Shown here: positions 19,442-41,355 of the stretch, one piece after another
Position numbering within the stretch: the stretch's first letter is position 1
How the letters are laid out: each line of letters starts with the position of its first letter
From: an uncultured delta proteobacterium
Lineage (GTDB): Bacteria > Desulfobacterota > Syntrophorhabdia > Syntrophorhabdales > WCHB1-27
Direction of reading: 5' to 3'
Assembly (NCBI GenBank): GCA_963729685.1
Contig: CAVSOX010000018.1
Coordinates: forward strand, 273,944 to 337,943
DNA length: 64,000 nt
Position numbers and translations under genes: made by a program
Notes under the pieces: model-generated
Databases searched by the model: none
What the model was told of the DNA's origin: nothing
The model's input: the letters and a program-made list of their open reading frames with translations, nothing else

Positions 19442-19525
19442 GAAGAGTGAAAGGCAGTGACGAGTGACGAATTCAACGCAATAGGTTTCTTTTTCACTCG
19501 GCACTCGGCACTCGTCACTCGTCAC
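19442..19525. repeat. Heptamer-mosaic intergenic repeat, locus A
   Basis: Left arm ..GTGACGAGTGACGA; AT-rich centre ..GCAATAGGTTTCTTTTT; right arm CACTCGG CACTCGG CACTCGT CACTCGT CAC (complement of GTGMCGA units). Confidence 0.85.
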
Positions 19526-19551
19526 TTGAGGCGGGGGTCGGAGGCGAGGCG

Positions 19552-25484: not shown

Positions 25485-25554
25485 GAAGGGAGAGGGGAGA
25501 GAGGAGCAGCGACGAGTGCCGAGTGCCGAGTGAAGAGAGGGGAGGGGGGAGGGG
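25485..25554. repeat. Heptamer-mosaic intergenic repeat, locus B (single arm)
   Basis: GA-rich GAAGGGAGAGGGGAGAGAGG, then GCGACGA GTGCCGA GTGCCGA GTGAAGA, then GAGGGGAGGGGGGAGGGG. Confidence 0.75.
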
Positions 25555-31852: not shown

Positions 31853-31890
31853 AGGAGCGCCCGGCTGTCAAAAGTATCTCGCAAGGCGAA

Positions 31891-32048
31891 ATGACGAGTG
31901 ACGAGTGGGAAGTGCCGAGTGGCGAGTGAAGAGTGAAGATGGGAGAGGGAGAGGGGAGAAGGGAGAGCGGTGAGTGAGGGTTCCAACTCGTCCGTCGCTT
32001 CTTTTGTCTTCTCTCGTCACTCGTCACTCGGCACTCGGTACTCTCCCT
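31891..32048. repeat. Heptamer-mosaic intergenic repeat, locus D (full-length, ~158 bp)
   Basis: ATGACGA GTGACGA GTGGGAA GTGCCGA GTGGCGA GTGAAGA GTGAAGA, then GGGAGAGGGAGAGGGGAGAAGGGAGAG, then ..GGTTCCAACTCG.., then ..CTCGTCACTCGTCACTCGGCACTCGGTAC. Confidence 0.9.
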
Positions 32049-32100: not shown

Positions 32101-33077
32101 GTGGGAGAGTTCAGAAAGGACCCGTTGACAGGCAATTGGGTGGTCGTCGGAGTAAAGAAAGCCGGAGCGGGCGAGACCGAGGTCTGCCCTTTTTGCCCCG
32201 GCAACGAGTATCTGACGCCGCACTCCATAAGAGAGATAAGGGACGGGCAGGGGCAGTGGCTTGCGCGCTCCTTTCCCGCGGCCAATCCGGTATTCCAGAT
32301 AGAGGCGAGCGAGAACAAGAGGGCCGAAGGCTTTTACGATAAGATGGGGACCCTCGGGGCGCACGAGATCATCGTAGAGGACAGGTCGCACACGAAAACC
32401 TTTTCGACTTTCGACTTCGCCGACGTCAGCGCGCATGGTGGAGATGTACACGGAGCGCATCATCGATCTGAAACGGGATAAGCGCTTCAAATATGTGCAG
32501 GTCTTCAAGAACCATGGAGAGATCACCGGCTCCCTCATCTTTCACCCGCACTCCCACGTGCTTGCGACGCCTATCGTGCCCCAGCAGTTGTCCCTGGAGC
32601 TCGCCAATTCGAAGAATCACTACCTGCAAAAGGAGCGGTGTCTCACGTGTGACGTCGTGAGCCAGGAGATAAGGCAGGCTAAAAGGGTGGTGACGTCGAC
32701 CGAGCACTTCCTGGTTATCTGTCCTTTTGCATCCCGCCTCTCCTTCGAGGCCTGGATCATTCCGCGGCGACACAACGCGAGCTTCGAGTCCTGGACCGAC
32801 GAAGACGTCGACACGCGACTTTGTCGCGGTCTTCCTCGATACGATGAAGCGTATCGAAAGGCTCAGGAGCTCTTACTCGATAGTCTTCCATACCTCCCCG
32901 AACACGGCGGTCTGGAATCTTGCGGAAGCCGGCGGTCCCCAGGTGGACGACTATTTCCATTGGCATATGGAGATCCTCCCGAGGACCTACTCCAAGTACA
33001 AGCGGGAAGACGAATTCTACACGGTTTCCATCATGCCGGAAGAAGCGGCAGAAATATTGAAGACGGAGAAACCTTAG
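32101..33077 (+). CDS. galT: GalT-family (HIT superfamily) hexose-1-phosphate uridylyltransferase-like, split by two apparent frameshifts (~32430 and ~32813)
   Basis: Three consecutive frames. (1) VGEFRKDPLTGNWVVV..CPFCPGNE..GAHEIIVE. (2) MVEMYTERIIDLKRDKRFKYVQVFKNHG..HPHSHVLATP..CLTCD. (3) RDFVAVFLDTMKRIERL..SIVFHTSP..FHWHMEILPR. The TTG at 32065 used by the ORF track is more likely a -35 box (TTGACA-16-TATATG). Confidence 0.75.
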
Positions 33078-33365: not shown

Positions 33366-33394
33366 TTGACAATCAGTTCGCCAAAGATGAGAAT
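33366..33394 (+). promoter_or_regulatory. Sigma-70-type promoter candidate for nrdD
   Basis: TTGACA (33366-33371), 17-nt spacer, GAGAAT (33389-33394). Confidence 0.4.
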
Positions 33395-33406
33395 GTATCT
33401 ACCATT

Positions 33407-33422
33407 GCCACTATATGTGGTA
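33407..33422. promoter_or_regulatory. NrdR box 1
   Basis: GCCACTATATGTGGTA matches the 16-bp NrdR palindrome acaCwAtATaTwGtgt. Confidence 0.7.
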
Positions 33423-33438
33423 GTACTATCTGTTGTCG

Positions 33439-33454
33439 GCACAATATATAGTAT
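33439..33454. promoter_or_regulatory. NrdR box 2
   Basis: GCACAATATATAGTAT lies 32 bp (about 3 helical turns) from box 1, the usual tandem arrangement upstream of nrd operons. Confidence 0.7.
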
Positions 33455-33499
33455 TTTTAGTACTTCTCAATAGTTAGACAAAAGGGGGCAGAAAAAACG

Positions 33500-35584
33500 A
33501 TGGAGACGACCGACCTGAACCTTTTCGTACGCACCTCGGAAGAGACCATCTCCGACTGGGACCGAACAAGGATAGTCGACGCCCTGATGAGAGAGACGAT
33601 GATCGATCAGGATACGGCCATGTCGCTCAGCGCCGGCGTGGAGGACCTGATCAAGAAGTCGGGCATCAAGATGGTGACGGCCCCGCTGATCAGGGAGCTC
33701 GTCAACGCGAAGCTGATCGAGAAGGGTCTGGAGTCTGCCCGGAGGATGCACACCAGGCTTGGTATGCCGATCTACGACGTCGGCAACCTGATCCTTCATC
33801 AGAATAAGGAGAATGCGAACGTGCCCCATGGGCCGGAGGCGACCAACCTCACGTTAGCCGAAAGGATAAAGAAGGAGTATGCCCTCCTCTCCGTTTTTTC
33901 CCAGGATGTAGCCGACGCGCACATGAACGGCGATATCCACCTCCATGATCTCGGCTTCATAGACAGGCCCTACTGCAGCGGCCAGTCCCTCGAATACATC
34001 AAGAAATTCGGGCTCAACCTCCCCCACTCGCTTTCCATGGCAAAACCCGCGAAGCATCCGGAGGTGCTTCTTGCCCACCTGGTGAAGTTTGCCGCGGCCT
34101 TGCAGAGCAATTTCGCGGGGGCCATAGGCTGGGATGCCATCAACATCTTCTTTGCGCCGTACCTTGAGGGCATGAGTGATAATGACGTCAAGCAGCTCGC
34201 CCAGATGCTCATTTTCGAGTTTTCGCAGCAGGCGGTGGCCAGAGGCGGCCAGGCGATCTTTACGGACATCAACCTCTATTGGGAGATACCGAAGCACTTT
34301 GTCGACGTCCCGGCTATAGGACCGGGCGGGGTTTTCACCGGTAAGACATACGGAGAGTATGAGAAAGAGGCGCAGCGGTTTGTCTGGAAGCTGTTCGAGG
34401 TCTTCAAGGACGGAGACGGCGCGGGACGTCCCTTTTTCTTCCCGAAGCCCCTCGTCCACATCACGGAAAAATTCTTCAAGACCGAGGGTTACAATGACTT
34501 CCTGAACCATATCTCGGATGTCGCCGCGGACAAGGGGAATACCTACTTCGTCTTCGACAGGGGCGAAACGGCCAAGATATCGGAGTGCTGCCGCTTAAGC
34601 TTCAAGCTGGATGAATTCGACCTCCTCGACGCGAGAGAGCCGTGGCGGATGCGCTATTCCGCGCTGCAGAACGTCTCCATCAACCTTCCGCGCATTGCCT
34701 ACCTGGCCAAAGGTGACGATACGCAGCTTTTCAGCCTGCTTACGGAGAAATTCCTGCTCGCCGTGACGGCCCACAAAGAGAAGCGGGCTTTCATAGAGAG
34801 GCTCCTCTCGTCGGGAGAAGACGGCCCTCTCGCGCTCCTGACCATGAACCGGGACGGCATGCCCTACCTCCGGATGAACAGGGCTTCCCACCTCGTGGGG
34901 ATGGTGGGCCTCAATGAAATGGTGCAGATACATGCAGGCGAGGAGATGCATGAGTCGAAGAAGGCGCTCAAATTCGGCCTGAAGATCATGGCCCACCTGA
35001 AGCTCCAGGCGGACAAGATGAAGGCGCAGGAGAACATGAGGCTCGTTCTGGAGCAAACCCCTGCGGAGAGCACGAGCTACCGGTTCGCGAAGCTCGACCT
35101 CCATTATTTCTCTCCTGCGTCGGGAAAAGCCGTAAAGGGCGATGTCTCTTCAGGCGAGGTCTACTACACGAACTCCACTCACCTGAACGTGTCAGTGCCG
35201 ATGAATCCCATCGAGAGGGTAACCAATGAAGGGCTGTTCCATCCCCTGATAGAGGCCGGGTCCATTTCCCACGTCTGGATCGGTGAGTCGATGCCGTCGA
35301 AAGAGGCTATCGGCGATTTCGTCACGAAGACTTTCAGGTATACGTTGAGCGATCAGATCGCCTTTTCGCCGGAGTTTACCGTGTGCAATGCGTGCAATCA
35401 GACGTCACGGGGGCTGGCCGACACATGCCCCCGCTGCAACTCCCACGAAGTGGACGGCATCACCAGGATCACCGGTTATTTTACCAAGGTATCGAGCTGG
35501 AACAAGGGCAAGCTGGGAGAGCTCAAGGACCGGTACCGCAACGGCGAGTTCTTCTCCGGCGAGCAGCAGAGAAAGGTTGTCTGA
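33500..35584 (+). CDS. nrdD: Anaerobic ribonucleoside-triphosphate reductase (class III) with N-terminal ATP-cone
   Basis: 694 aa; ATP-cone DWDRTRIVDALMRE..; Zn site CNACNQ..CPRCN; glycyl-radical tail GITRITGYFTKVSSWNKGKLGELKDR. Confidence 0.95.
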   Translation: METTDLNLFVRTSEETISDWDRTRIVDALMRETMIDQDTAMSLSAGVEDLIKKSGIKMVTAPLIRELVNAKLIEKGLESARRMHTRLGMPIYDVGNLILHQNKENANVPHGPEATNLTLAERIKKEYALLSVFSQDVADAHMNGDIHLHDLGFIDRPYCSGQSLEYIKKFGLNLPHSLSMAKPAKHPEVLLAHLVKFAAALQSNFAGAIGWDAINIFFAPYLEGMSDNDVKQLAQMLIFEFSQQAVARGGQAIFTDINLYWEIPKHFVDVPAIGPGGVFTGKTYGEYEKEAQRFVWKLFEVFKDGDGAGRPFFFPKPLVHITEKFFKTEGYNDFLNHISDVAADKGNTYFVFDRGETAKISECCRLSFKLDEFDLLDAREPWRMRYSALQNVSINLPRIAYLAKGDDTQLFSLLTEKFLLAVTAHKEKRAFIERLLSSGEDGPLALLTMNRDGMPYLRMNRASHLVGMVGLNEMVQIHAGEEMHESKKALKFGLKIMAHLKLQADKMKAQENMRLVLEQTPAESTSYRFAKLDLHYFSPASGKAVKGDVSSGEVYYTNSTHLNVSVPMNPIERVTNEGLFHPLIEAGSISHVWIGESMPSKEAIGDFVTKTFRYTLSDQIAFSPEFTVCNACNQTSRGLADTCPRCNSHEVDGITRITGYFTKVSSWNKGKLGELKDRYRNGEFFSGEQQRKVV

Positions 35585-35635
35585 TTCTTGACGAGGGAAG
35601 TGGCGAGCGGGGTACACCGAGCGAAAGCGAGCTAA

Positions 35636-35768
35636 AGCGGGGAGGCTCGGCGGGCTTATGCCCGTCGAGGGGGCGCTGAGCCCCAATGACTGAAAGCGAG
35701 CGCATGCGAAGCGCTGAGCGGGGAGGCTCGGCGGGCTTATGCCCGTCGAGGGGGCGCTGAGCCCCAAT
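35636..35768 (+). repeat. Tandem direct repeat (2 x 52 nt, period 81 nt), each copy folding into two hairpins
   Basis: AGCGGGGAGGCTCGGCGGGCTTATGCCCGTCGAGGGGGCGCTGAGCCCCAAT occurs at 35636-35687 and 35717-35768. Hairpins: CUCGGCGGGC-UUAU-GCCCGUCGAG and GGGGC-GCUGA-GCCCC. Both flanks share GAAAGCGAGC. Confidence 0.9.
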
Positions 35769-35788
35769 AATAGAGGAGGGCACGCAAG

Positions 35789-36052
35789 ATGGGAGTGGTA
35801 AAGATTTTCTACAAGGACGATTGCCCGAAGTGCCCTTTGGCGAAACAGCTCGGAGATAAGCTGAGGGAGAGGGACGTGGATGTCCTCACCTACAACGTGG
35901 GGACAGCGGACGGGCTCGCCGAGGCGAGCTTCTACAGCATCATGTCGCTGCCCACGGTGCTTGTGGAAGACACGATGGAAAACGGCATAGGAGAGTGGAG
36001 AGGAGACGTCCCCAAAGTGGAAGAGGTGCTTCACGCTGTCCATTCTGCCTGA
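35789..36052 (+). CDS. Glutaredoxin/thioredoxin-fold small redox protein (NrdH/Grx-like)
   Basis: 87 aa; VKIFYKDDCPKCPLAK (CPxC); ..LPTVLV..; AGAGGAGGG SD. Confidence 0.8.
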   Translation: MGVVKIFYKDDCPKCPLAKQLGDKLRERDVDVLTYNVGTADGLAEASFYSIMSLPTVLVEDTMENGIGEWRGDVPKVEEVLHAVHSA

Positions 36053-36758
36053 TTTTCCCGTCAAGGGTTTTATCGAGACGAGCTTCATCGACTGGAAGAC
36101 GCAGCTCGCGTCGGTAATATTTTCCGGAGGCTGCAATTTCCGGTGCCCTTTCTGCCACAACAGGAAGCTGGTGCTCCACCCCCAGTCCATGGAGGACGTG
36201 CCTTTTGACCATATCCTCGGGCGCTTGAAGAGATTCCGGAAGTGGGTGGAGCGGGTGGTGGTCACCGGGGGCGAGCCCACCATGCACAAGGGCCTCGTGA
36301 GGGTCGTCGAGACCTTCAAAAAACAGGGACTCAAGGTGAAGCTCGACACGAACGGGTCACGGCCGGACGTGGTCAAAGGGCTTGTCGACGAGGGACTGAT
36401 CGACTATATCGCCATGGACGTGAAGGGACCCCTCGGCGCCTACGAGAGGTGGTGCGGATGCCCCGTCGATAAGAAGAAGATCAGGGAGAGCATCGATTTT
36501 ATCCTGGAGGGGCGCGTCGATTATGAATTCAGAATGACCCTCGTGCCCTTCCTGCACCGGGAAGAGGATGCTCTTCAGGTGGCGAGAGAGATCAGGCCGG
36601 CCCGTCGCTTTTTCGTGCAGGAGTTTGTCCCCAGGGAGACCCTCAATGAGAAATACGCAACCATAAAGCCGTTCTCTCCGGAAAGAATGAAAGCCATAAG
36701 GGAAGCGGTCGCCGCCGTCCTTTCGAATGCCCCTGTCCGCCGTCATATACACGAGTAA
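36042..36758 (+). CDS. nrdG: Anaerobic ribonucleotide reductase activating protein (radical SAM); start codon unresolved
   Basis: Frame reads ..PDFPVKGFIETSFIDWKTQLASVIFSGGCNFRCPFCHN.. (CxxxCxxC at 36132-36155), then ..VVVTGGEPT..KLDTNG. The first canonical start (GTG 36171, used by the track) lies downstream of the Cys motif; only ATT 36042 and CTG 36045 are available upstream. Confidence 0.8.
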   Translation: MLPDFPVKGFIETSFIDWKTQLASVIFSGGCNFRCPFCHNRKLVLHPQSMEDVPFDHILGRLKRFRKWVERVVVTGGEPTMHKGLVRVVETFKKQGLKVKLDTNGSRPDVVKGLVDEGLIDYIAMDVKGPLGAYERWCGCPVDKKKIRESIDFILEGRVDYEFRMTLVPFLHREEDALQVAREIRPARRFFVQEFVPRETLNEKYATIKPFSPERMKAIREAVAAVLSNAPVRRHIHE

Positions 36759-37407
36759 CGAGGCCTTTTCCTCCATGAGGGACGCGGTCCGGCGGAGGGC
36801 CGAAGGTCGTGGAATAAAACCCTACACATTTTCCTTTGCCCACAAGCTGGAGACAGGCGCCGTCCGTGTGCGGGCGACCGAGCTTGCGAAAGGTGTCCTG
36901 ATGCCCGTGGTGAGAGAGATGGTAGAAAAAGGAGAGGCAACCCTCGCCTCACGGCCGGACAGAGAGGTAAGGGAGGCGGCCTTTGATGAGCTTATAGAGG
37001 ACGGGGACCGGACGAGGAGGGTCGCGACCGTCCGGTTTACGTCGCCCACGATTGTCGAGGTCCAGGGAAGGTACGTGCCTTTTCCTGTTATCCATGCCAT
37101 ATTTGCCGGGTACCGTGAGATCTGGAGCGCCTTTTCGCCCATTCCGCTCCCTCCGGCGGCAGAGGCCCTGGAGCACGTAGCCGTGACCGATTTCAAGATT
37201 TCCTGCGCCACGCCCGGCCTGATCGGGCCGGGGGCGGCCTCCTTTGGGGTCGGGGCGGAAGGGTGGGTCACGCTGGAGATGGAAAGGGGGCGGACCGAGC
37301 AGGAGATCGCTTTCTTCAACACGCTGATCGATTTCGCCTTTTACTGCGGCACAGGCGCCCATACCGACGAGGGGCTGGGGCAGACGAGGAGATGGGAGAA
37401 GAGGTGA
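36727..37407 (+). CDS. Cas6-like RAMP-family protein (orphan; no other cas genes or CRISPR array in window)
   Basis: ..GIKPYTFSF.. (Cas6 'pFtfS' motif), ..VRFTSPTIVEVQGRYVPFP.., and C-terminal G-rich loop FAFYCGTGAHTDEGLGQ (GxGxxxxxGxG, compare Cas6 GFGEKNSLGFG). ATG 36775, 17 nt after the nrdG stop, is an alternative start. Confidence 0.55.
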   Translation: MPLSAVIYTSNEAFSSMRDAVRRRAEGRGIKPYTFSFAHKLETGAVRVRATELAKGVLMPVVREMVEKGEATLASRPDREVREAAFDELIEDGDRTRRVATVRFTSPTIVEVQGRYVPFPVIHAIFAGYREIWSAFSPIPLPPAAEALEHVAVTDFKISCATPGLIGPGAASFGVGAEGWVTLEMERGRTEQEIAFFNTLIDFAFYCGTGAHTDEGLGQTRRWEKR

Positions 37408-37530
37408 GGGACGAGTGCCGAGTGACGAGTGAAACGCTCTCATAGGTCCTATTCGACCTATAGGACCTATGAGAAAGCGAAACAGGGCCTTACGGACGCA
37501 GAGGAACGGGTTGCCCGCGCCCCTCGTCCC
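37402..37530. repeat. Heptamer-mosaic intergenic repeat, locus F (with perfect 14-bp AT-rich inverted repeat 37439-37473)
   Basis: GAGGTGA GGGACGA GTGCCGA GTGACGA GTGAAAC, then CTCATAGGTCCTAT-TCGACCT-ATAGGACCTATGAG, then a degenerate right arm ..CCCTCGTCCCTCGG. Confidence 0.85.
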
Positions 37531-37544
37531 TCGGTCAATTGCCT

Positions 37545-38099
37545 TTACGGCTGGCCTATAGGGAGCACGGTTTTTCCGTGGGACTCGTTGATTACCTCCG
37601 CCATGGCAAGGTACAGGGCGGCGGCGCCGCACGTGATGCCCTCCCATCCGGCGATTATCCCTATGGTAGCATTTCCGCTCCAGTCCCTGATGGCGAGGAG
37701 CCAGAAAAGCACGGTGAGGCTCAGAAAGACGTACTGGAGTACCCTATTCTTTCCCCATGTGCCGAACCACATGAAGAAGGTGAACACCCCCCACATGAAG
37801 AGGTACCAGCCCATAAACCCGACGGGAACCGCGGGGATGTCCTTAAAGACAAGGATAAAGACAAGGGTCCACCAGAAAAAGCCGTAGGAGATAAAGGCAG
37901 TCATACCGAAGGTATTGCCTTTCTTGAACTCCAGGATCCCTGCAATAACCTGGGCGATCCCCCCGTAGCACAACCCCATCGCGAAGATCATGGAGCCAAG
38001 GGGAAAGAACCCGGCATTGTGGATATTCAAGAGGACCGTCGTCATGCCGAAGCCTGCCAGCCCGAGAGGTGCTGGATTTCCTAATTTTTCCGCTTCCAT
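37545..38099 (-). CDS. satP: GPR1/FUN34/YaaH-family acetate/succinate channel
   Basis: 184 aa, 6 TM; NPAPLGLAGFG signature; ..YGGIAQVIAGILEFKKGNTFG. Confidence 0.88.
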   Translation of the reverse strand: MEAEKLGNPAPLGLAGFGMTTVLLNIHNAGFFPLGSMIFAMGLCYGGIAQVIAGILEFKKGNTFGMTAFISYGFFWWTLVFILVFKDIPAVPVGFMGWYLFMWGVFTFFMWFGTWGKNRVLQYVFLSLTVLFWLLAIRDWSGNATIGIIAGWEGITCGAAALYLAMAEVINESHGKTVLPIGQP

Positions 38100-41172: not shown

Positions 41173-41355
41173 GTGAAGAAGTGCCGTGTGAAGAAGTGCC
41201 GAGTGACGAGTGAAGAGCAGTGCCGAGTGGCGAGTGACGAAGTGATGAGTAAAGGAAATAGGTCTTATAGGTCAAATAGGACTTATAAGACCTATTAAAA
41301 GTTTCCAACTCTCCCCCTCTCTTTCCTTGTCTTCACTCGGCACTCGGCACTCCGC
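41173..41355. repeat. Heptamer-mosaic intergenic repeat, locus G (full-length, with 13-bp AT-rich inverted repeat 41257-41296)
   Basis: GTGAAGA A GTGCCGT GTGAAGA A GTGCCGA GTGACGA GTGAAGA GCA GTGCCGA GTGGCGA GTGACGA A GTGATGA, then AATAGGTCTTATA-14 nt-TATAAGACCTATT, then ..GTTTCCAACTCTCCCCCTCTCTTTCC.., then ..TTCACTCGGCACTCGGCAC. Confidence 0.9.

Follow-up and report, generated by a model that had tools for sequence, protein, structure and literature searches.

The best sequence and fold matches among described proteins for Cas6L, the product of a Cas6-derived gene (cas6L) closing an nrdD-redoxin-nrdG-cas6L operon, are T. thermophilus Cas6A (TTHA0078) and Cas6B (TTHB231), with PDB entries 4c8y, 4c97 and 4c98. 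The operon lies in a 64-kb stretch of DNA from an uncultured bacterium of the Syntrophorhabdales (contig CAVSOX010000018.1), here called the window, and a tandem pair of hairpin-forming repeats is found in the spacer between nrdD and the redoxin gene. The two T. thermophilus proteins and Cas6L have in common a pair of ferredoxin/RRM domains, a C-terminal glycine-rich loop and a (N/K)P(F/Y) motif following helix 1; in addition TTHA0078, like cas6L, is encoded away from any CRISPR locus. Cas6L differs from both in being shorter (226 aa), in having an N-terminal domain beyond the reach of Cas6 profiles and in being fixed in a reductase operon. A similar comparison can be made with non-catalytic Cas6 proteins, of which Pyrococcus horikoshii Cas6nc is an example. 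They share with Cas6L a Cas6 fold devoid of catalytic residues, for which binding of RNA without cutting is expected, but they are found in CRISPR-bearing genomes, where they bind CRISPR repeats, whereas Cas6L is locked to nrdG, with no CRISPR at the loci read.

The rest of the operon corresponds to the known NrdR-regulated nrdDG operons that include a NrdH/thioredoxin-like gene. These likewise feature tandem boxes about 31 bp apart which overlap the promoter, an ATP-cone in nrdD, a small CxxC redoxin and a radical-SAM activase, while the fourth, Cas6-derived cistron, overlapping the end of nrdG, is an extra of the operon described here.

For the repeats, the closest known counterparts are the REP/BIME sequences of Enterobacteria, which are also short, G+C-rich intergenic hairpin repeats, present in many copies, in both orientations and in tandem clusters, and which may be located between genes of one operon, where they are able to stabilise the upstream mRNA segment. 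The element of the window is longer (about 80 nt) and features two hairpins between a 5' and a 3' module, both conserved; compensatory changes alter its first stem and leave the flanks fixed, its core has persisted over order-level divergence, and no RAYT-type or other transposase was found beside its copies.

The explanation favoured here, with moderate confidence, is that of an ancestral Syntrophorhabdales operon containing a Cas6 derivative, captured once and serving as an RNA-binding accessory, the repeats being separate, passive copies of a dispersed element.

The Cas6-derived gene of the operon

The genes nrdD, redoxin, nrdG and cas6L form one operon, controlled by NrdR-type boxes. Its features, including the two repeat copies of the spacer, are:

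33366-33394, + strand, sigma-70-type promoter candidate, TTGACA-17-GAGAAT, 10/12 positions matching
33408-33454, + strand, two NrdR-box-like palindromes identified by sequence, CCACTATATGTGGTAG (33408-33423) and GCACAATATATAGTAT (33439-33454)
33500-35584, + strand, nrdD, class III ribonucleotide reductase with ATP-cone (PF13597, E 1e-144; TIGR02487, 426 bits)
35617-35690, + strand, element copy 1 (5' module, core 35639-35684 and tail)
35692-35775, + strand, element copy 2 (covariance model R1, 82.5 bits, E 1e-20)
35789-36052, + strand, redoxin, 87 aa, thioredoxin fold, CPKC motif (PF13192, TIGR00411)
36036-36758, + strand, nrdG, radical-SAM activase (TIGR02495, 183 bits)
36727-37407, + strand, cas6L, 226-aa Cas6-fold protein with glycine-rich loop GTGAHTDEGLGQ and KPYT motif, without the catalytic His

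By profile and predicted fold, Cas6L is a real, derived member of the Cas6 family. The protein matches PF10040 with 46.3 bits (cut-off 25), over residues 102-220 only, which correspond to the C-terminal domain; TIGR01877 reaches 26.2 bits, under its cut-off of 58.65, and the PADLOC Cas6/Cas6d models also match in the C-terminal half only, while a canonical relative, P0089, matches them over its full length with 150 bits. A profile built on 23 Cas6L homologs (A1) detects T. thermophilus Cas6A with an E value of 3e-7. In the AlphaFold2 model (pLDDT 79, pTM 0.76) two tandem ferredoxin/RRM (RAMP) domains are present, and Foldseek aligns it from end to end with Cas6B (4c98) and Cas6A (4c8y/4c8z), at E 1e-12 and template modelling (TM) scores of 0.64-0.74. 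Full-length matches were also obtained with StCas6 (S. thermophilus), type IV Cas6 and SsoCas6, the whole set of Cas6 structures ranging from E 1e-12 to 3e-6 and from TM 0.53 to 0.74. The glycine-rich loop aligns with that of TtCas6A; G208, G210, G216, G218, Q219 and T220 are invariant in the 23 homologs, the loop GxGxxxxxGxGQT(R)(R) as a whole being almost fully so, and R47 and R49 are invariant as well.

A database search returned about 87 full-length Cas6L homologs, all of about 220 aa, followed by a sharp drop to canonical Cas6. Scanning one genome per species gave 16 full-length cas6L loci, all in metagenome-assembled genomes (MAGs) of Syntrophorhabdales type, and in all 16 the order nrdD-redoxin-nrdG-cas6L is maintained, along with the same 32-nt overlap of nrdG and cas6L. 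The same gene order and overlap are found in seven further lineages, including the most divergent ones, P0087 (37% identity) and P0085 (42%), so that, together with the window, the sample amounts to 24 lineages of Syntrophorhabdales MAGs. The identity of Cas6L drops alongside that of NrdD, from 83% where NrdD is 96% identical down to 44% where NrdD is 86% identical, which points to one ancient capture followed by vertical descent. The capture would have preceded the split of the sampled lineages. Values of dN/dS are 0.13-0.31 for cas6L, 0.09-0.19 for nrdG and 0.03-0.11 for nrdD; cas6L is therefore a selected gene, evolving faster than its neighbours. Apparent frameshifts were noticed in cas6L, nrdD or nrdG of long-read MAG loci (L016, 6001-6646; nrdD and nrdG of L013 and L184) and, since purifying selection is seen elsewhere, are probably assembly indels rather than signs of decay.

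In TtCas6A (H37), TtCas6B (H42) and StCas6 the catalytic His is located six residues before the (N/K)P(F/Y) motif. The corresponding column of Cas6L (E26 in the window, six before P32) is occupied by E, A, G, V, S, R or K, and none of the 23 aligned members has a His there; the N-terminal alignment is weak, though the P(F/Y) motif of three independent structures gives it an anchor. Moreover, no invariant His was found anywhere in the family (23 homologs). In TtCas6A the H37A replacement lowers cleavage about 17,000-fold, and Arg129 reads the lower stem (PMC3902920); the position equivalent to Arg129 is mostly Glu in Cas6L. A 'non-catalytic Cas6' is cited in the same article. As judged from the alignments, both the canonical chemistry and the stem-reading mode of Cas6 are gone from Cas6L. 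All members carry another residue in place of the catalytic His known from the solved relatives, so that Cas6L is a domesticated Cas6, probably cleaving poorly or not at all.

No CRISPR-like array was detected in the 64-kb window, and among its 57 open reading frames (ORFs) no cas model was matched besides those matching the cas6L ORF itself. Likewise, neither a CRISPR array nor another cas gene was found at the related Syntrophorhabdales loci that were read. Distant relatives, matching in the C-terminal half only and encoded in Chloroflexi and others, lie 0.4-3 kb from genuine CRISPR arrays, in which repeats of the ...AATCCCGACCGAGGGATTGAAAC type number up to 47; these array-adjacent relatives serve as a positive control and show the origin of the family.

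An earlier note on this DNA, made from the letters of the window, had placed a Cas6-like gene directly after nrdG, and the PF10040 match of the C-terminal domain, with a predicted two-domain Cas6 fold, confirms it, at a length of 226 aa. The orphan status which it assigned to the gene holds both in the window and at the related loci. The co-occurrence of cas6-like genes with nrdDG in relatives, which it suggested checking, holds in 24 of the 24 lineages sampled, throughout the order. Of the two explanations it offered, that of a domesticated Cas6 is upheld by operon-locked descent, loss of the catalytic His and lack of CRISPR nearby.

The two-hairpin element and the nrdD-redoxin spacer

The spacer between nrdD and the redoxin gene is 204 nt long and contains two 52-nt repeats (35636-35687 and 35717-35768), spaced with a period of 81 nt and 100% identical, where zero matches are expected by chance. 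Each includes a 10-bp hairpin with a UUAU loop, followed by a GGGGC/GCCCC hairpin. The z-score for the folding of the entire spacer is only -2.15. The tail of the element ends at 35771 and the Shine-Dalgarno (SD) sequence of the redoxin gene, GAGGAGG, spans 35773-35779, so that the second copy ends 1-4 nt before it. Rfam searches of the window and of the spacer matched no family, and no further element copies were found in the 64-kb window beyond the spacer pair.

The 52-nt repeats are two copies of a dispersed, REP/BIME-like, two-hairpin intergenic repeat of about 80 nt. Its general form is GAGCGGGGAGGCTC, a variable hairpin, and then GGAGGGGGCGCTGAGCCCCAAT. Between the 5' module, CGAGCGAAGCGAGnnTGAG, and the tail, AATAATTGC, a first hairpin with heavily covarying inner pairs is followed by an almost fixed second one. 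A pattern scan of metagenome contigs, mostly from peat, located at least 138 copies on at least 120 contigs (L056-L175), none of which encodes NrdD, redoxin, NrdG or Cas6L. Weak DNA similarity of two of them, L122 and L084, to Syntrophorhabdales loci is the sole support for the origin of the element-bearing contigs. In 80 copies the first stem is paired at 96.6%, while slid controls are paired at 40-57%; 125 compensatory cells were counted, against 36 in shuffles, and for 6 of the 10 pairs there are copies in which both partners differ. Part of the constancy of the second hairpin among the metagenome copies is imposed by the search pattern; copies retrieved by covariance model feature a compensatory C-G to U-A variant of this hairpin, along with a loop variant. 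Copies occur in both orientations, about evenly with respect to their neighbours (as judged from crude gene calls), and are often in tandem. No transposase or other gene was found in company with them on these contigs, the ORF families shared among element-bearing contigs being only common paralogs, and no copy was found in viral contigs. The element constitutes an undescribed repeat family, absent from Rfam.

In some copies the first or second hairpin harbours a further small palindrome, …CCGGGGCACCCGC-loop-GCGGGTCGCGG… (L185, 8918-9018; L008, 6731-6842; L007, 2488-2600; L016, 4509-4591), which looks like one small repeat inserted into another.

The orthologous nrdD-redoxin spacers vary from about 30 to 594 nt. 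The element is present in 7 of the 22 that were judged (the window, L003, L004, L009, L016, L185 and L176), with five tandem copies in L016. Element-free spacers are just 30-33 nt long in L005, L007 and the locus of P0075, where cas6L is still present. Most of the spacers devoid of the element hold other hairpins, for instance heptamer palindromes, hairpins rich in G and a long palindrome of AATTG; heptamer palindromes related to the heptamers of the window fill the spacers of L011-L014, the most divergent lineages. Another conserved long hairpin element (CCTCCGACCACGGCAGCAATTGG…CCAATTGCTGC…) was also noticed in the spacer of one clade (L008, 4737-5062; L009, 4509-5062; L016, 4950-5062), where, in L009, it is duplicated around the inserted two-hairpin element. 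Outside the spacer, the covariance model detected three to four tandem sense copies of the two-hairpin element right after the cas6L stop codon in L008 and L009, and more copies within 1 kb downstream of cas6L in L010 and L184. The background outside the operon is about 5 copies in some 250 kb of flanking sequence, approximately one per 50 kb. The lineages with the element cover the Cas6L tree in full, at identities of 37% to 100%, and its core is nearly unchanged among them.

The possibility that the tandem repeats constitute a mini CRISPR array was rejected: only two copies are found in the window, the 29-nt interval is part of the 5' module of the repeated unit, and the five 81-nt units of L016 are identical, 'spacers' included.

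Structures common to all the operons were looked for in the 5' untranslated region, in the region 3' of cas6L and at the synonymous sites of the four genes, and none was found; the only synonymous-site peak along the four genes corresponds to the dual-coding overlap of nrdG and cas6L.

Two identical double-hairpin repeats, the second abutting the redoxin SD, had been reported in the earlier note and are indeed there. Its proposal of a Cas6-like RNase cutting the hairpins of its own mRNA is unsupported: the repeat belongs to a dispersed and common element, which occurs on at least 120 metagenome contigs free of nrd genes and cas6L, the outcome that the note had named in advance as refuting. The presence of the element in only 7 of 22 spacers, though cas6L is always there, and the loss of the catalytic His in 23 of 23 aligned members also speak against self-processing. 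Even so, as the element is over-represented in the operon and right after it, binding of the element by Cas6L, and even self-processing, retain some probability. The AT-rich hairpin following the gene, put forward as another possible substrate, is not conserved in relatives.

Control region and surroundings of the operon

The promoter candidate is kept 5' of nrdD at orthologous loci as well. The NrdR-type boxes are located 3' of it and are conserved at every orthologous locus; the two palindromes are assigned to NrdR on the basis of the published box consensus. This corresponds to the normal front end of the earlier note, except that the starts of the boxes are 31 nt apart, not 32.

The redoxin gene, earlier called 'grx', is NrdH-like by position. 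It is found in all orthologous operons, and its product scores 24.8 bits with PF13192, at the cut-off, and 29.9 bits with TIGR00411, below it. No canonical start codon is available for nrdG: in the region 36036-36171 no in-frame ATG, GTG or TTG was found 5' of the radical-SAM cysteine motif (36130-36160), and only the near-cognate codons CTG 36036, ATT 36042 and CTG 36045 are present, overlapping the redoxin gene at its 3' end. Its orthologs start with TTG or ATG at varying positions or, again, have no canonical start. The start of cas6L was set at ATG 36727, giving 226 aa, because 23 homologs all share an N-terminal MP(L/R)S; it lies 32 nt inside nrdG. No gaps separate redoxin, nrdG and cas6L.

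Three further features are located 3' of cas6L:

37406-37432, + strand, heptamer tandem repeat of GAGTGAC type, directly 3' of the cas6L stop
37438-37474, no strand assigned, perfect inverted repeat (15 bp, 7-nt loop) separating the convergent cas6L and GPR1/FUN34/YaaH-family genes
37545-38099, - strand, GPR1/FUN34/YaaH-family gene, convergent with cas6L

The inverted repeat at 37438-37474 was considered as a conserved substrate and discarded, being absent in relatives. Two weak relatives of its ATAGGTCCTAT arm, with two mismatches each, are found at 41276-41297, where they adjoin another heptamer-repeat block. Heptamer tandem repeats of the GAGTGAC/TGACGAG type were observed at 31888-32043, 37406-37432, 41173-41254, 19495-19526 and 25513-25532; they occupy many intergenic sites, some as inverted blocks capable of forming long hairpins. 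On the 5' side of nrdD, a GalT/HIT-like gene (32101-33074) is distributed over three reading frames when compared with its intact ortholog in L181, and is either a pseudogene or the product of assembly indel errors.

Competing explanations and significance

According to the favoured explanation, the anaerobic ribonucleotide reductase operon of Syntrophorhabdales would be ancestral in the form nrdD-redoxin-nrdG-cas6L, under the control of NrdR boxes; in it a Cas6 derivative, presumably captured a single time, became locked to nrdG by the 32-nt overlap and has been kept by purifying selection. Having no CRISPR partner nearby, and having lost the catalytic His and the stem-reading Arg while keeping the loop and the conserved arginines, Cas6L would act as an RNA-binding accessory protein, made in step with NrdG and with little or no cleavage activity; redoxin, nrdG and cas6L would be expressed at low, coupled levels relative to NrdD. 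The element would have landed repeatedly in the nrdD-redoxin spacer, where it most likely acts as passive intercistronic RNA hairpins, independently of cas6L. Spacer hairpins, whatever their origin, may help to set passively the ratio of NrdD to the downstream products; those of the element could, by analogy with REP, shield the nrdD segment or make it less strictly coupled to the redoxin-nrdG-cas6L block, itself tightly coupled.

Several observations weigh against this explanation. The element is about 10-fold enriched in the spacer, where its flanks define at least four independent insertions, and a purely passive model must account for such an excess by a preference of insertion or by selection for a hairpin, of whatever kind, at this position. 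The enrichment could reflect either of these just as well as a link to Cas6L. Three spacers are almost without structure, and the REP-like stabiliser role that the spacer hairpins could have is drawn entirely from the analogy. As to the protein, Cas6 enzymes without a catalytic His exist, and residual cleavage by Cas6L is therefore possible. Furthermore, the invariance of the glycine-rich loop and of several arginines makes it probable that some nucleic-acid ligand is still bound.

According to a rival proposal, which we regard as unlikely, Cas6L binds hairpin 2 of the element, or slowly cuts at its base, in its own mRNA and in other transcripts, as a post-transcriptional device outside CRISPR; this generalises the idea of the earlier note. 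Hairpin 2 reads GGGGC-GCUGA-GCCCC and then AAUAAUUGC. Its G+C stem of 5 bp, its 5-nt loop and an A/U tail in which AUUG occurs give it a shape resembling the stem-loop and AUUGAAAC handle of the CRISPR repeats beside the nearest true Cas6 relatives. The compensatory C-G to U-A change in some copies and the invariance of the glycine-rich loop are in line with the proposal, as are the spread of the element over the whole Cas6L tree with its core nearly unchanged and its over-representation, always in sense, in the spacer (7/22) and after cas6L (L008, L009), relative to a background of about one copy per 50 kb. However, 15 of the 22 spacers are without the element, some of them being just about 30 nt long, copies elsewhere are found in both orientations relative to the neighbouring genes, and the window contains no other copy. 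Both variants of hairpin 2 are present in one genome, which excludes one-to-one coevolution, and part of the invariance of this hairpin in the metagenome set comes from the search pattern. The missing catalytic His, together with the Glu found at the stem-reading residue of TtCas6A, also speaks against it. Direct recognition of the element by Cas6L is, on the whole, considered doubtful. A broader form of the idea, in which Cas6L and the element make up a CRISPR-independent pair, the copies in its own operon serving reductase feedback and the others a wider post-transcriptional control, is deemed quite unlikely.

The same changes in the protein may be taken to mean that Cas6L has moved off RNA altogether, having been kept for contacts with proteins or small ligands, either as a ferredoxin-fold partner of NrdG or NrdD or as a nucleotide-binding regulator of the reductase. 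Both the catalytic His and the stem-binding Arg are lost, Cas6 profiles no longer detect the diverged N-terminal domain, no cis RNA structure is conserved in or around the operon, and the 32-nt overlap with nrdG recurs in every lineage, within a tightly coupled redoxin-nrdG-cas6L block. The near-invariant GxGxxxxxGxGQT(R)(R) loop, with R47 and R49, is instead what is expected of a phosphate-backbone binder, and we know of no Cas6 fold with a non-RNA role; a function of this kind is given little credit. An even lower probability is assigned to Cas6L being an ordinary stand-alone Cas6, which, like TTHA0078, would mature the CRISPR RNAs (crRNAs) of arrays elsewhere in the genome, its position after nrdG being incidental. 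Against such a role, cas6L has been retained throughout the order, by strictly vertical descent and with its start overlapping nrdG, in a housekeeping operon, whereas CRISPR-Cas systems are patchily distributed; in addition, 23 of 23 aligned members are without the catalytic His, neither arrays nor cas genes are present in the window or at related Syntrophorhabdales loci, and Cas6 profiles still recognise the C-terminal half only. In its favour, the inspected part of this genome amounts to 64 kb and isolated cas loci are common (PMC5294841).

Few Cas proteins have been exapted for roles other than defence, and to our knowledge none of the described cases involves a solo Cas6: a review of CRISPR exaptations lists no such case, and the literature searched contains no paper linking Cas6 with nrdD, nrdG or the anaerobic ribonucleotide reductase in this sense. 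The two-hairpin element, in which a covarying first stem is combined with fixed flanks, is worth a separate study. Through the entire history of an order-level clade a Cas6 derivative has stayed within an essential housekeeping operon, under purifying selection and with no CRISPR nearby, which provides a clean natural case for what the Cas6 fold can do once free of CRISPR. Should Cas6L still bind a hairpin, it would offer a ready-made binder of RNA hairpins that by nature does not cleave, and might regulate deoxyribonucleoside triphosphate (dNTP) supply in strict anaerobes.

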